This document shows, one piece after another, positions 35,351 to 39,762 of a stretch of 64,000 nt of DNA. This stretch comes from an uncultured Planctomycetaceae bacterium. Its GTDB lineage: Bacteria; Planctomycetota; Planctomycetia; Isosphaerales; Isosphaeraceae. Location: NCBI GenBank assembly GCA_963833985.1, contig CAWIAD010000002.1, forward strand, positions 5,952,001 to 6,016,000, in the 5' to 3' direction. Position numbers and translations under genes: made by a program. The notes beneath the pieces were generated by a model. That model searched no databases, was not told the origin of the DNA, and was given only the letters and a program-made list of their open reading frames with translations. How positions within the stretch are numbered: position 1 is the first letter of the stretch; every line of letters begins with the position of its first letter.

Positions 35351-35495
35351 ATCCCGGACAGATTTCTTGTGGCATCCGGCGTTCGCCTGGGAGAGAATGA
35401 TGTGCTTGCTCGCGTGGCGCTGAGCCAGGCCCCCGAGCGGAACTTCTGAAAACGCGTGAGCTCCGGTGCTTCTGAAATGTCTTATGGAAAAACTC

Positions 35496-36971
35496 ATGTT
35501 TTCTTTGCAAGTCGCTCTCCTGGCTTTGGTGCTGTCTCTAGGGGCAGGCTGCGGAGATCCGGCTGGCAGGCTTTCCGGATCTCCGACCGCGCAGGGGCCG
35601 GCCGGACCGTTCCTGGTCAAACCCTATCTCCAGTGGGGGGATTCCGCGAAGTTCGAGAGTGGCCCGGGCATGCAGTTGCTCTGGCAAGACAATGATGACG
35701 AGGCCGCCTGGACGGTGGAGTACCGGCAGGCGAACCCGTCCGGTGCCCCGTCCGAGTGGCGCAAGGCCGGCCCGGCCGCGATGCGGAGAGTCGCCGTGCC
35801 TGGCATTCCGCCCCACCGGGTCTATCGCTCCAGCCTGAAGGGTCTGACCACGGGGGCCGAGTTTTCCTACCGCGTGAACAAGAACAACGAACTGGTCTTC
35901 TCGGCCCGTGGGCGCCCGCCCGCCGCCGGCGACGCGCCCTACCGGTTCGTCGTCTTCGGCGACTGCGGAACCAGCAGCCGCGAACAGAAGGCCATCGCCT
36001 ACCAGGCATTCCAGGCGCGCCCCGATCTCGTCATGATCACGGGCGACATCGTCTACGACCGGGGCAGGATCTCCGAGTATCGCCCCAACTTCTGGCCGAT
36101 CTACAACGCCGATGACGCGTCGCCCGCGGCCGGTGCGCCGCTCTTGCGATCGACGATCTTCGTGGCCGCGCCGGGAAACCATGACGTCGGCACTCGCGAC
36201 CTGGGCAAGTACCCCGACTCGCTGGCCTATTTCCTCTACTGGTCGCAGCCCCTCAATGGTCCGCCGGGCGTGGAGGGTTCCGCACACGTGCCCGCCCTGA
36301 AGGGGCCGGAGGCCAACCGCCGCGCATTCCTTGACGCCGCCGGGCCGGCGTTTCCCCGCATGGGCAACTTCTCGTTCGACCATGGCAACGCTCACTGGCT
36401 GGTCCTGGACGCCAACCCGTACGTCGACTGGACCGACCCGCAATTGCGAGCCTGGGTGCAGCAGGACCTGGCGGCCGCCCAGCACGCCACCTGGCGGTTC
36501 GTCGCCCTTCATCAGCCGGGCTTCCAGTCGGCCCGAAAGCATTCGGACGAGGAGAATTCGCGCGTCCTCGCCGACCTTTTCGAGGCCGGCAACGTGTCGA
36601 TTGTCTTTTGCGGCCACGTGCACAATTACCAGCGCACCTTCCCACTCCGGTTCGCCGCGGAACCGCGCACCAGCGGCAAGCCCATGCATGACAAGGAACT
36701 CGTGCCGGGCACCTGGACCCTGGACCGCACCTTCGATGGCCGCTTGCATACGCGGCCCTCAGGCGTCATCTACCTGGTCACCGGCGCCGGCGGCGCGAGC
36801 CTGTACAACCCGGAGCAGCAGAACGACCCCGCGTCCTGGAAAAGCTTCACATGCAAGTTCGTTTCGAAGGTCCATTCGCTGACCGTCGCCACGGTGGATG
36901 GGCCGAGCGTGCTGGTCCGCCAGGTCTCGCTCCAGGGCGAGGAGCTGGACCGGTTCGTGATCACCAGGTGA
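35496..36971 (+). CDS. Metallophosphoesterase (purple acid phosphatase-like) lipoprotein
   Basis: Lipobox-like LGAGC; FGDCG, TGDIVY, PGNHD, HQP, GHVHNYQR, VTGAGG. Start could also be 35484. Confidence 0.87.
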   Translation: MFSLQVALLALVLSLGAGCGDPAGRLSGSPTAQGPAGPFLVKPYLQWGDSAKFESGPGMQLLWQDNDDEAAWTVEYRQANPSGAPSEWRKAGPAAMRRVAVPGIPPHRVYRSSLKGLTTGAEFSYRVNKNNELVFSARGRPPAAGDAPYRFVVFGDCGTSSREQKAIAYQAFQARPDLVMITGDIVYDRGRISEYRPNFWPIYNADDASPAAGAPLLRSTIFVAAPGNHDVGTRDLGKYPDSLAYFLYWSQPLNGPPGVEGSAHVPALKGPEANRRAFLDAAGPAFPRMGNFSFDHGNAHWLVLDANPYVDWTDPQLRAWVQQDLAAAQHATWRFVALHQPGFQSARKHSDEENSRVLADLFEAGNVSIVFCGHVHNYQRTFPLRFAAEPRTSGKPMHDKELVPGTWTLDRTFDGRLHTRPSGVIYLVTGAGGASLYNPEQQNDPASWKSFTCKFVSKVHSLTVATVDGPSVLVRQVSLQGEELDRFVITR

Positions 36972-36982
36972 CCACAGCGTGA

Positions 36983-38557
36983 TCAAGGAAAGTCTTCCCG
37001 GAGGAGACGGCTGGCGCGCACCAGGTTCGCCAGCTTGGCAGAGGCAGTCTCGAACGCGGTGATGGGGCTGTCGGCGAAGGTGGCGAAGCCGCAGTCGGGA
37101 TTCAGCAGCACTCGGTCGCGGCCGAACAGGGCGATCGCACGCCGGGCGCGGAAGACGATCTCCTCGACCGGTTCCACCCGGCCGGACTTCTGGTCGACCA
37201 CGCCCACGCCGATGCGGACGCTCTCGGGCAAGCCCTTGAGCACATCGATCTCGCCGGCCCTGGAAGTGCACAGCTCGAGGAAAAGCGTCCCCACGGGAAG
37301 CGAACGGAAGAGCGGGACCAGTGGCGCGTAATCGCCGGAAAGCGCGGCGGACACATCGCGCGTCCAGTTGCCGCGGCAAACGTGCATCGCCAGCCTTTCG
37401 ATGGGGAATGGCTCCAGCGTGCTGACCAGGAGCGATCGTGCAAAATCGAGCTCCTCGGCGATGGGCCTTTTCTCCCCGAGGGCGCCGCACATGAACGAGC
37501 GATTGCCGCCCGCAGGGCGTCCGTGGACCACCTCGGTCAAGACTGGCTCGTCAAGCTGTACGAGCGCGGCACCGGCCTCCAGGAGCGCGGCGATCTCCGC
37601 CCGCAACACCTCGACCACGTCGGCGGCAAGTGCCTCGCGGCTGCTATAGGCACGGTCGGCAACGCATTCCAGCCACATGGTCCGGGTCAGCAGGTAAGGG
37701 CCCGGCAGCGCAATCTTGACCGGCCGGTCCGTCAGCTTCCGCACCGCGATCAGCTCATGCACGGCCAGCGGCCGCGCCGGGTTGCGCGCCAGCCTGCCGA
37801 AGACGGCGGGATGGCGTACCGACTGGGCCGGGACGTCGAGCGCCTGGAGCTCGCGGGCGAAAGCCTCCGGATGTTCCACGTAAGGCAGCAGGTCGACGAT
37901 CGGGATGAGCTGGCAGTTCTCCAGGCGGCTGGCCACGAAGCTGGCGTAGCTGTCGCGATGCTGCTCGCCGTCGGTGACGACATCGACGCCCGCCTCGAGC
38001 TGTGCCTGGACGACCTGGGCGACGGCACGGTCGGCGAGCGCGGAGTATTCCGGCTCCGAGACGCGGCCTTCGAGCCTGCCGTGCAGGGCCTCCAGCAGCC
38101 AGGGGGGCCGGGGCCAGCTTCCAAGGCCCATGACAGCAAGGGCGGCGATCGCCGGCTGGCGATCGTCCGGGGACGTCAAGCGGCCCGACGCCGGATCGGC
38201 CGTCGCAAGTGGCCGGGCTGAGGAGGCATGGCTGGAGGCAACCCGCGGCTCCCTGGCGGTGGGTCCGGTTCCTTGCCTGGCGATCAGGAACGTCCATGCG
38301 GCCGCGTCCCGGTCATGCCGCAAGGAGACGAGCACATTGCCGGTGAGCCGGCACCAGGCCGGCAAGTCCTCGCTCACGGAGGGCTCGGTGGAGCGAATTT
38401 CGAGGATCTCTCCCGGTTGCAGCGGGTCGATGTGGCGCCTGATCTGGAGCAAGAGACCGCTGCCACAGTCGAGGTTGCCGCCATCAAACCGCGCCGCGGG
38501 CTCGGGGCCCGGCTGTTCACCTGGTGTGCGTCTCGGATCAATCATGATGGTCGCCAT
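36983..38557 (-). CDS. Fusion of a TusA/SirA-like domain to a single-barrel cobalamin-independent methionine synthase-like (MetE catalytic domain) protein
   Basis: N-terminal FDGGNLDCGSGLLLQIR...PGEILEIRSTEPSV.EDLPAWCRLTGN, then a linker, then GSWPRP, GVDVVTDGEQ, LPGP, VQLDEP and Zn ligands HVCRGN / FLE / NPDCGF. Confidence 0.88.
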   Translation of the reverse strand: MATIMIDPRRTPGEQPGPEPAARFDGGNLDCGSGLLLQIRRHIDPLQPGEILEIRSTEPSVSEDLPAWCRLTGNVLVSLRHDRDAAAWTFLIARQGTGPTAREPRVASSHASSARPLATADPASGRLTSPDDRQPAIAALAVMGLGSWPRPPWLLEALHGRLEGRVSEPEYSALADRAVAQVVQAQLEAGVDVVTDGEQHRDSYASFVASRLENCQLIPIVDLLPYVEHPEAFARELQALDVPAQSVRHPAVFGRLARNPARPLAVHELIAVRKLTDRPVKIALPGPYLLTRTMWLECVADRAYSSREALAADVVEVLRAEIAALLEAGAALVQLDEPVLTEVVHGRPAGGNRSFMCGALGEKRPIAEELDFARSLLVSTLEPFPIERLAMHVCRGNWTRDVSAALSGDYAPLVPLFRSLPVGTLFLELCTSRAGEIDVLKGLPESVRIGVGVVDQKSGRVEPVEEIVFRARRAIALFGRDRVLLNPDCGFATFADSPITAFETASAKLANLVRASRLLREDFP

Positions 38558-38581
38558 CGCCGCCAGGATCGTGTCAGTAGC

Positions 38582-38935
38582 TCACGCAGGGCGCCCCTGC
38601 GCCAGGAACTCGACCAGCCGGGCACCACCGACGATCGTCGCGCCGGGGATGAGCGTGCCTGGGTCCAGGCCGCGCTTCTTGAAGCAGGGGGAGCAGACGA
38701 GGATGGTGCCACCGGCCGCGATAAAGCTGGTCATGAGCTCCCTGAGCGGCTGGAAGCCTGGCTCGTGGATGGCATCGGCCGTGCCTTCGACGGCCAGACG
38801 GACGCCCTGGATACTCAGGAAGACCATGGTCTCTTGCCCGGAGGCCACGGCGGCGCCTGCCACCACGAAGGCCACCGTGGCGCGGTCGGGATCGTCCAGC
38901 GAGCGGGTCAGCGAGACGCAAAACGTTCCGGCCAT
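38582..38935 (-). CDS. DsrE/DsrF-like protein
   Basis: DDPDRATVAFVVAGAAVASG..T.VFL...GV.L; GG.ILVCSPCFKKRG; GA.IVGGA.LVEFL. Confidence 0.88.
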   Translation of the reverse strand: MAGTFCVSLTRSLDDPDRATVAFVVAGAAVASGQETMVFLSIQGVRLAVEGTADAIHEPGFQPLRELMTSFIAAGGTILVCSPCFKKRGLDPGTLIPGATIVGGARLVEFLAQGRPA

Positions 38936-38942
38936 GGCGAGT

Positions 38943-39179
38943 TCAGTCCTTTCTGCGCTGAAGGTCGTAACGGGGGTGGTCCGAGTGCAGCAAGCGGTGT
39001 CCGGTAAGCCGGCACCAGGCGGGGACATCGACCGGGGCACCCTCATCGCTTGTGATCAGGCGGAAGACCTGCCCGGAGTTCAGCCGCTCCAGACGGCTCT
39101 TGAGCGCCAGGAGCATCGGCCCGCATGCCAGGTCGCCCGCGTCCCAGGTTTCAGCAGCCTCCGGCATCTCCAAATTCAC
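38943..39179 (-). CDS. TusA/SirA-family sulfur carrier
   Basis: WDAGDLACGPMLLALK..L..L.SGQVF.L...D.GAP.DVPAWCRLTGH.L. Confidence 0.85.
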   Translation of the reverse strand: MNLEMPEAAETWDAGDLACGPMLLALKSRLERLNSGQVFRLITSDEGAPVDVPAWCRLTGHRLLHSDHPRYDLQRRKD

Positions 39180-39282: not shown

Positions 39283-39762
39283 ATGGATGGCGAATCGCTG
39301 CGGCGACATCTTCGGGAGCTGCTGGAAGGCGGCAACGCGCACCTGGATTTCGAGGCGGCCATTGCCGATTTGCCGCCCGCACAACGCGGCCTCCGGCCTC
39401 CGGGGCTGTCCCATACAGCCTGGCGGCTGCTCGAGCACATGCGCATTGCCCAGTGGGACATTCTGCGGTTCTCGATCGACCCGAGCCATGAGTCGCCCGA
39501 CTTTCCCCTGGGCTACTGGCCCGACGGTGACGCCCCGCCGGATGACACCGCCTGGGATCGGACGGTGCAAGCATTCCGCGCGGATCTGAAAACCATGGTA
39601 GCACTGGTGGAAGACCCCACGACCGACCTCTTCGCTCCGATTCCCCACGGCCAGGGGCAAACGATCCTCCGTGAGGCGCTCCTGGTGGCGGACCATAATG
39701 CCTATCACCTGGGCCAGCTCGTGACGGTCCGCAAGTTGCTACGCGCCTGGCCACATGACTGA
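39283..39762 (+). CDS. DinB/YfiT superfamily protein
   Basis: Four-helix-bundle pattern with a metal-binding His set ([15 protein letters not shown]). Confidence 0.85.

Follow-up and report, generated by a model that had tools for sequence, protein, structure and literature searches.

Methionine and homocysteine synthesis is textbook metabolism. Relays composed of TusA and DsrE proteins are also well described, namely TusA-TusBCD-TusE-MnmA in E. coli and Rhd-TusA-DsrE in sulfur oxidisers, and their known roles so far are in tRNA thiolation, molybdenum cofactor synthesis and sulfur oxidation. In such sulfur-atom relays, TusA hands over to a DsrE-like protein, which is followed by an adaptor and the enzyme. 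To our knowledge, no described relay serves a MetE-fold barrel as the terminal enzyme. Here, a three-gene operon joining the two kinds of protein was analysed in a 64,000-nucleotide stretch of DNA from an uncultured Planctomycetaceae bacterium (contig CAWIAD010000002.1, positions 5,952,001 to 6,016,000), hereafter the window. The operon is located at 36983-39179 on the reverse strand, as are all of its features given below. As the original prediction had it, the operon encodes a free TusA-like carrier, a DsrE protein with a CSPC motif and a second TusA domain fused to a single MetE-like barrel, all with Pfam scores above the curated cut-offs. No study of this TusA-DsrE-barrel set was found, and its predicted features likely mark a new carrier-dependent reaction on homocysteine or methionine.

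The accessible part of Price et al. 2021 (PMC7857596) gives the residues by which core methionine synthases are defined, which in E. coli MetE are H641, C643, E665 and C726 together with S433, E484 and D599. It also states that MesD requires a dedicated partner protein (MesX) and that 75% of MesD proteins co-occur with MetH, and it makes no mention of TusA, DsrE or such a fusion. Like MesD, the enzyme of the operon is a single MetE-type barrel with no folate domain and with the same Zn and homocysteine residues, it has dedicated partner genes, and MetH usually co-occurs with it. In contrast to MesD, its partners are TusA and DsrE, and its family is set apart by a TusA domain at the N-terminus and by an inserted loop of ~20 residues with an invariant Cys or selenocysteine (Sec). 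DUF1852 (MesX) was not found by Pfam among the scanned neighbours in the window and in the relatives' loci. Membership of MesD was rejected on this lack of an adjacent DUF1852 and on an identity of ~21% to the MesD structure 3RPD. Nothing new was found in the MesX literature after 2021. The fold, the Zn site and the homocysteine site are also common to the C-terminal PF01717 barrel of MetE. However, the enzyme of the operon differs from MetE in having no PF08267 barrel, in scoring far under the TIGR01371 cut-off (77.3 bits vs 929.95) and in the replacement of the segment that lies, in the alignment to MetE, opposite NGWV...SYGSR, a folate-contact stretch of MetE.

The carriers resemble those of the Tus and Rhd-TusA-DsrE relays, since a DsrE-family partner accompanies a small TusA in which the Cys is conserved, the adaptor is next to the final enzyme and the genes are co-located. 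The differences are a Cys-Gly in place of CPxP and a CxxC in DsrE rather than a single active Cys. Methionine sulfoxide reductases (Msr) use a Sec or Cys catalytic residue, a resolving Cys and thioredoxin. The present set is similar to them in that the presumed catalytic nucleophile is Sec or Cys, a mobile element carries another Cys, the partner has a CxxC and the substrate pocket is of the methionine type. The fold is unrelated, however, and zinc is located here at the substrate sulfur site. YedF consists of a TusA/SirA-like domain and a DsrE-like domain with CGxC and is linked to SelD, according to the accessible part of Lin et al. 2015 (PMC5322559). Its two domain types, the CxxC in the DsrE part and the co-occurrence with SelD recur here. 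However, the domains are encoded by separate genes instead of one fused protein, and YedF has no MetE-like enzyme coupled to it. Assignment to YedF (TIGR03527) was rejected, as DsrE had no NCBIfam match at E 0.01 or better and TusA matched only PRK00299 and Rv1681, both below the cut-off.

The claim of the original prediction that no characterised pathway has such a layout agrees with the literature searches. A full-text search on TusA with methionine synthase, DsrE or OsmC gave nothing relevant, and the accessible literature on PF01717 and selenoproteins held nothing but unrelated plant work. A 2026 selenoproteome review lists, in its accessible part, DsrE-like (UxxC), OsmC-like and rhodanese selenoproteins, and neither 'methionine synthase' nor 'MetE' was found in the main text as far as it was accessible. 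The term 'methionine synthase' was also not found in the accessible parts of other selenoproteome literature, the supplements of which could hold the family under another name. The widespread set links the methionine-synthase fold to cysteine carriers, with an extra putative catalytic residue that is sometimes selenocysteine. Whatever its chemistry, it would offer a new partner logic for MetE-type enzymes and a new client for TusA/DsrE relays. It also bears on how MetH-only (B12-dependent) bacteria manage without MetE, on the homocysteine source of genome-reduced Dehalococcoidia and on the completeness of the prokaryotic selenoprotein catalogue.

The zinc barrel and its carriers

The fusion gene (36983-38557) encodes 524 residues followed by a stop. 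Its barrel, residues ~138-524 (36986-38146), was delimited by alignment to T. maritima MetE and 3RPD and by Foldseek, and it matches PF01717 (Meth_synt_2) at 3.8e-28, above the curated cut-off. The Pfam scan of the fusion protein gave no match to PF08267, the N-terminal barrel of MetE, in line with its predicted absence. The four Zn ligands, H392, C394, E428 and C489, were placed by motif (HxC, E, DC). Together with the homocysteine-type residues S147, E198 and D336, they are at least 95% conserved in 78 sequences and invariant in 20. Therefore, the expectation that all of the Zn ligands are kept was borne out and extends to the homocysteine-binding residues. S147, E198 and D336 fall on IGS, GE and DEP of MetE and 3RPD; T. 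maritima MetE could be aligned with these three residues and with the C489 segment, and 3RPD with all seven residues. The barrel thus has the features by which Price et al. recognise the core (folate-independent) enzymes, namely a single barrel without the folate barrel, four Zn ligands and three homocysteine residues.

NCBIfam and Protein Data Bank profile scores were used in place of a phylogeny with named MesA-D, YxjH and XecA. In the comparison of the family profile with the Protein Data Bank, the MesD structure 3RPD was the best match (2.1e-41) and MetE the second (2.6e-36). The AlphaFold2 model of the fusion has a mean predicted local distance difference test score (pLDDT) of 78.8. By Foldseek, it matches MetE at 7e-22 and 3RPD with a template modelling score of 0.81 on the target at the low identity noted above. 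The model covers the C-terminal half of MetE and all of 3RPD.

A mobile loop on the active-site face connects the D336-E-P strand to the helix that follows. This loop could be aligned to neither MetE nor MesD, and it has ~33 residues vs 12 in 3RPD. It bears F355-M356-C357, of which Cys357 (codon UGC, 37487-37489) is found in 78/78 sequences. The block-mean pLDDT across residues 341-360 is 68 and 51. Cys357 in the SFMCG motif is the predicted key residue specific to this family. Both of the extra cysteines reported earlier, in WLEC and SFMCG, are present. The surveyed SFMCG Cys is invariant, whereas the WLEC Cys is kept in only 67/78 sequences. Four arginines (Arg150, Arg200, Arg292 and Arg395) show a conservation of 95% or more, and the corresponding positions in MesD/MetE are K/Q, T/E, gap/W and Y. 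These family-specific residues could be a lead for an anionic co-substrate.

The free TusA gene (38943-39179, 78 aa) was identified from its open reading frame and Pfam (PF01206, 9.6e-11, 41.8 bits vs a cut-off of 28.6). The TusA domain of the fusion, residues ~18-96 (38270-38506; Pfam stretch 36-92), reaches 5.6e-08 and 33 bits against the same cut-off. It was modelled with strands and a helix at a block-mean pLDDT of ~54-86. As expected of the family, both domains carry the conserved Cys where helix 1 begins. However, the canonical CPxP is replaced by LACGP in the free TusA and by LDCGS in the fused domain, and 95% or more of the relatives have Gly after the Cys. The Cys-Gly noticed earlier in both domains was thereby confirmed. 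Cys19 of the free TusA (D-L-A-C-G, codon 39123-39125) is kept in 84/84 loci and Cys56 in its PAWC motif in 80/83, while Cys31 of the fused domain (L-D-C-G, codon 38465-38467) is kept in 58/58 fused sequences. The second Cys in PAWCRLTG is indeed common to both TusA domains of the window, as had been noted, but the copy in the fused domain is kept in only 34/59 sequences. Between the fused TusA domain and the barrel lies a low-complexity segment, residues ~97-137 (38147-38269), in which residues 97-131 have a pLDDT below 50 and no secondary structure in the model. The length of this segment differs between relatives; for instance, P0097 has 575 aa. Residues 97-131 are predicted to be disordered, hence a tether.

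The dsrE gene (38582-38935, 117 aa) likely starts with the ATG at 38935, although its open reading frame reaches 39046. It matches PF02635 at 1.5e-12 (48.2 bits vs a cut-off of 22.7). Its C81-S-P-C84 motif (codons 38693-38695 for C81 and 38684-38686 for C84) is kept in 82/82 loci. Score and conserved cysteines place it in the DsrE/TusD family, with C81 as the putative equivalent of the active Cys. The gaps are 7 bp from the tusA stop to the dsrE ATG and 24 bp from the dsrE stop to the fusion ATG. These are the same gaps as originally described for three packed genes. All of the motifs named at that time, LACG, LDCG, PAWCRLTG (twice), CSPC, MHVC, FLELC, NPDCG, WLEC and SFMCG, are found in the translations. 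The genome that contains the window comprises 10.16 Mb in two contigs, and the TusA and DsrE of the operon are the sole such matches in it. Therefore, the pair appears to be dedicated to the barrel enzyme.

Conservation of the cassette and residue 357

At least 5523 protein relatives were found at E 0.001 or better among 8000 candidates scored, and TusA and Meth_synt_2 domains were both present in 110 of the best 120 database relatives. One relative, P0035 of the culturable Aquisphaera giovannonii, shows 68% identity. A set of 101 loci was composed of 80 that were kept from 133 encoding stretches of a species-genome scan and 21 from whole-genome searches. Among them, 62 are fused with at least 900 bp upstream, 28 have a separate barrel with upstream DNA and 11 are cut by contig ends. 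Both tusA and dsrE lie beside the fusion in 58/62 fused loci. The exceptions are L106, with dsrE only (the stretch examined starts there), and L006, L063 and L064, with neither gene. The proposed survey of the cluster thus gave the same gene order in nearly all fused loci, an arrangement far beyond chance. In a sister clade the cassette consists of four genes, tusA, dsrE, tusA::osmC-like and a separate barrel. The first three accompany the barrel in 19/28 separate-barrel loci, and only the OsmC-like gene is beside the barrel in 6/28. The Cys of the OsmC-like domain is kept in 18/22. The tight co-inheritance and the existence of split and fused forms show that the parts of this predicted cassette act together.

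The carriers of the cassette span Planctomycetota, Pseudomonadota, Myxococcota, Melainabacteria, Chloroflexota and other phyla. In a maximum-likelihood tree, obtained by a quick search with Shimodaira-Hasegawa-like approximate likelihood ratio (SH-aLRT) support only, the fused clade is apart from the split clade. Planctomycetota are mixed among Pseudomonadota, Myxococcota, Melainabacteria, Chloroflexota and Bacteroidota. This interleaving of phyla points to horizontal spread of the cassette.

An in-frame TGA occupies the Cys357 column in 5/101 loci, with the motif T-F-M-[TGA]-A/G, and the alignment runs on to the C-terminus. All five loci (L067, L072, L102 in G169, L103 in G144 and L108 in G115) belong to the split clade, and their positions on the tree require at least two Cys/Sec changes. 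SelD was found in four of the five genomes (G038, G115, G144 and G169) and was not found in the 1.6-Mb G043. A TGA aligned with a conserved Cys, conservation that continues downstream and the Sec machinery in 4/5 genomes are the features of a selenoprotein family. The in-frame TGA at the conserved Cys357 column argues that the codon is read as selenocysteine, and position 357 is, as judged from the alignment, a Sec/Cys pair with selenocysteine in some relatives. A Sec/Cys pair is the usual signature of a catalytic nucleophile, and Sec usually marks redox or chalcogen-transfer sites. The window, with its UGC codon, has the Cys form. No aligned TGA was found in the cysteine columns of TusA, DsrE and the OsmC-like domain. 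Hairpins begin 8-14 nt past the TGA with a stability no greater than that of shuffles (z -0.2 to 0.4), and no Rfam match to a selenocysteine insertion sequence (SECIS) was obtained downstream of the TGA. A tRNA near L072 was considered as tRNA-Sec and rejected, as it is a tRNA-Ser.

Possible reactions of the cassette

We tentatively favour a carrier-dependent, B12-independent, methionine-synthase-like reaction without a folate domain, by which the operon would be a putative back-up of MetH. Zinc-bound homocysteine would react with a group delivered at Cys357 (Sec in some relatives). In the Tus relay, TusA acts with TusD. By analogy, free TusA and DsrE would load or unload Cys31 of the tethered TusA domain. 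The tether would bring Cys31 to the F-M-C loop above the barrel mouth, where Cys/Sec357 would carry the transferred group, possibly as a methyl-chalcogenide adduct, at the methyl-folate position of MetE. The relay cysteines would end on residue 357, and catalysis would proceed through a bond that 357, or its group, forms with the sulfur of zinc-bound homocysteine. Methionine would be the net product, and MetH-only organisms would thereby have a route independent of B12 and of the MetE folate domain. The seven-residue test, the kinship with MesD by profile and fold and the absence of MetE support this reading. Moreover, MesD needs a dedicated partner and is thus a precedent for exotic partners in the core methionine-synthase group.

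The genome of the window has a full MetH (1640 bits) and no full MetE. In five further cassette genomes, MetH was over the cut-off in 5/5 and MetE in 0/5, and the MetH activation domain PF02965 was present in 61/71 cassette genomes. The co-occurrence of the cassette with MetH resembles that of MesD. No full-length MetE was found in the 30 cassette genomes of two samples. In the Planctomycetota sample, it was present in 0/23 cassette genomes vs 12/128 others (P 0.13). In the order of genome G013, it was present in 0/7 vs 89/194 others (hypergeometric P 0.015), counts that include the genome G221, flagged as unpublished. Separately, the genome of the window has two more single-barrel Meth_synt_2 matches outside the window, at C1:1879846-1880829 and C1:3409663-3410659. 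The former is a 342-aa open frame with a weak match to the N-terminal-type model as well.

Several results weigh against a methionine-synthase-like reaction. None of ten listed NCBIfam families, eight of them methionine-synthase models, was matched over its cut-off; the best curated score was 152.2 bits for NF003317 vs a cut-off of 406. No gene generating a methyl donor is conserved in the cassette, and no riboswitch was found upstream at the Rfam gathering score in the window region and 10 loci. Exclusion of MetE in Planctomycetota was rejected as an argument, because the P value of 0.13 comes with little power, and the absence in the order of G013 was seen in 7 genomes that are related to one another. 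The MetE patterns are therefore only hints, because kin are not independent. In the Planctomycetota family f28, two genomes (G178 and G133) have the barrel as their only PF01717 protein. However, five sister genomes lack the barrel, MetE and MetH with its homocysteine domain too, so the family makes methionine in some other way. The argument that the barrel is the sole methionine synthase of the two genomes was rejected accordingly. Finally, the invariant Cys/Sec and the CxxC partner are left unexplained by methyl transfer. As a separate observation on f28, all seven genomes (G074, G097, G116, G164, G192, G133 and G178) are 96-100% complete with no PF02574 and no MetE, and five of them have no PF01717 protein whatsoever. 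In G178 and G133, the B12-binding and pterin-binding proteins are separate.

The carrier set also mirrors the sulfur-atom relays mentioned above, and relay sulfur may go to Cys/Sec357 for conversion of cysteine sulfur into homocysteine without pyridoxal 5'-phosphate (PLP). We regard such a persulfide-fed homocysteine synthase as unlikely. Free TusA would be charged by a cysteine desulfurase or rhodanese, and the sulfur would pass through DsrE and the TusA domain to Cys/Sec357. An activated homoserine, e.g. O-phosphohomoserine, held by S147/E198/D336, would be the target of the zinc-activated persulfide, and the resulting disulfide between homocysteine and Cys357 would be resolved by relay thiols. 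A rhodanese gene follows the barrel and the OsmC-like gene in L069, a class-V aminotransferase gene follows the fusion in L030, and the four family-specific arginines could bind an anionic leaving group. PF01053 enzymes were found in none of four small Dehalococcoidia cassette genomes tested. Five Dehalococcoidia genomes of 1.9-2.4 Mb (G001, G002, G003, G034 and G035) have no MetX over the cut-off, no MetA and no HcyBio, yet all five have MetH (TIGR02082 over the cut-off in G001-G003, PF02965 in G034 and G035). These five are either methionine/homocysteine auxotrophs or users of a novel homocysteine route. There is little chance that the cassette is a new homocysteine route with no PLP and no free sulfide, that it is the sole route in some small Dehalococcoidia, and that it defines a selenoprotein family not found in the catalogue papers searched. 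The enzyme would be redundant where PF01053 is present, which is the case for 6/10 cassette genomes tested, and the genome of the window has two PF01053 enzymes. It is possible that the Dehalococcoidia are nothing more than methionine auxotrophs, and this reading leaves the absence of MetE unexplained. In addition, no precedent is known to us for a PLP-free gamma-substitution in the MetE fold.

The Sec/Cys pair at the putative catalytic residue 357 would fit a reductase. In this case, Cys/Sec357 would attack an oxidised derivative of methionine or homocysteine (e.g. free methionine sulfoxide or a homocysteine mixed disulfide) at the zinc site, Cys31 would resolve, and the DsrE CxxC and free TusA would provide re-reduction as thioredoxin does for Msr. 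The DsrE CxxC is invariant, known DsrE-like selenoproteins have UxxC, and the sister clade has an OsmC-like domain fused to the carriers or next to them. Redox and stress genes also recur nearby, in a neighbour list that stands without a background comparison. They are DinB_2 (the window, L080 and L017), glutathione S-transferase (L046 and L104), an AhpD-like CMD protein (L046), thioredoxin (L020), rubrerythrin (L077) and DJ-1 (L072). Nevertheless, three carrier modules exceed the needs of known reductases, the OsmC-like Cys is not invariant, and a fully conserved thiolate-activating zinc site is superfluous for sulfoxide reduction. A thiol-disulfide relay of this type is thus judged improbable.

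Selenium handling is a still more doubtful explanation. TusA and DsrE, like a split YedF, would carry Cys-S-Se to or from a barrel acting on a seleno-amino acid, with a tie to selenophosphate synthesis. The SelD-linked YedF described above, with its CGxC, would be the model for this. SelD was found in 39/43 cassette genomes from many phyla, and the four misses are assemblies of 1.6-3.1 Mb. In Planctomycetota, it was present in 23/23 cassette genomes vs 87/128 others (P 3e-4). SelD and a PALP+CBS gene are convergent with the cassette at a distance of ~2.5 kb in G240 and G372, and SelB is located ~1.5 kb downstream of the cassette in Dehalococcoidia (L039 and L044). However, each of these adjacencies represents one lineage, and SelD has a base rate of 73-78% in the two samples to begin with. 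Within the order of G013, SelD was found in 5/7 cassette genomes vs 151/194 others. The two misses have SelA, so that SelD or SelA is present in 7/7, but enrichment was rejected for both SelD and SelA (P 0.81 and 0.28). In the genome of the window, SelD (C2:4294585-4295517) and SelA (C2:826509-827870) are both far from the operon, and the proteins of the window fail the YedF model. The link could merely mirror the selenoprotein members of the barrel family. As an observation apart, the SelD gene of the window genome, which lies outside the window, contains one in-frame TGA and therefore probably encodes a selenoprotein itself. Some other function of the cassette is considered highly improbable.

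Neighbouring genes and further observations

The operon is flanked by a convergent metallophosphoesterase gene (35466-36971) and a divergent gene for a DinB_2 protein (39283-39762). The open reading frame list and Pfam also place a resistance-nodulation-division pump on its flank. A scan of the locus for promoters and terminators found nothing exceeding shuffles. A Guanidine-II riboswitch candidate at 37969-38018 on the forward strand scored 24.7 bits vs a threshold of 32. The fusion gene, encoded on the other strand, covers this position, and the candidate was taken as a chance match.

No universal extra neighbour was found among the relatives. All-against-all clustering of the open reading frames of 80 loci gave only the three core genes in all lineages, and the remaining clusters reflect synteny inside Dehalococcoidia. 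A transglutaminase-like gene is downstream in L028, L031, L071 and L079. An ATP-binding cassette (ABC) transporter lies between dsrE and the fusion in L106, and an ABC ATPase lies upstream of the fusion in L046. The convergent block with SelD, at 3-3713 in L104 (G240) and 6331-9986 in L105 (G372), consists of a RES-domain gene, SelD and the gene for the PALP+CBS enzyme of 455 aa. A META-domain gene is present on the other flank of the cassette in both loci.

In three Rhizobiales loci, a gene for an exported protein of ~530 aa is inserted between dsrE and the fusion (L026:3864-5900, L036:4377-5957 and L038:4335-5936). A signal peptide and a C-terminal membrane anchor are present in the protein, which has no match in Pfam, and its L026 and L036 copies are 66% identical. 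L036 and L038 also encode, ahead of it, a second small Pfam-less protein. A Propionivibrio metagenome-assembled genome encodes, upstream of the cassette, a YcaO protein with an N-terminal OsmC-like domain (L013:1060-3288, reverse strand). Here too, a sulfur-related enzyme is joined to an OsmC-like domain. Lastly, in three closely related Planctomycetia loci, a protein with DUF6851 and a vanadium-chloroperoxidase-like helical bundle is encoded a few kb upstream of the four-gene cassette (L071:1318-2940, L077:1122-2753 and L079:1552-3156).

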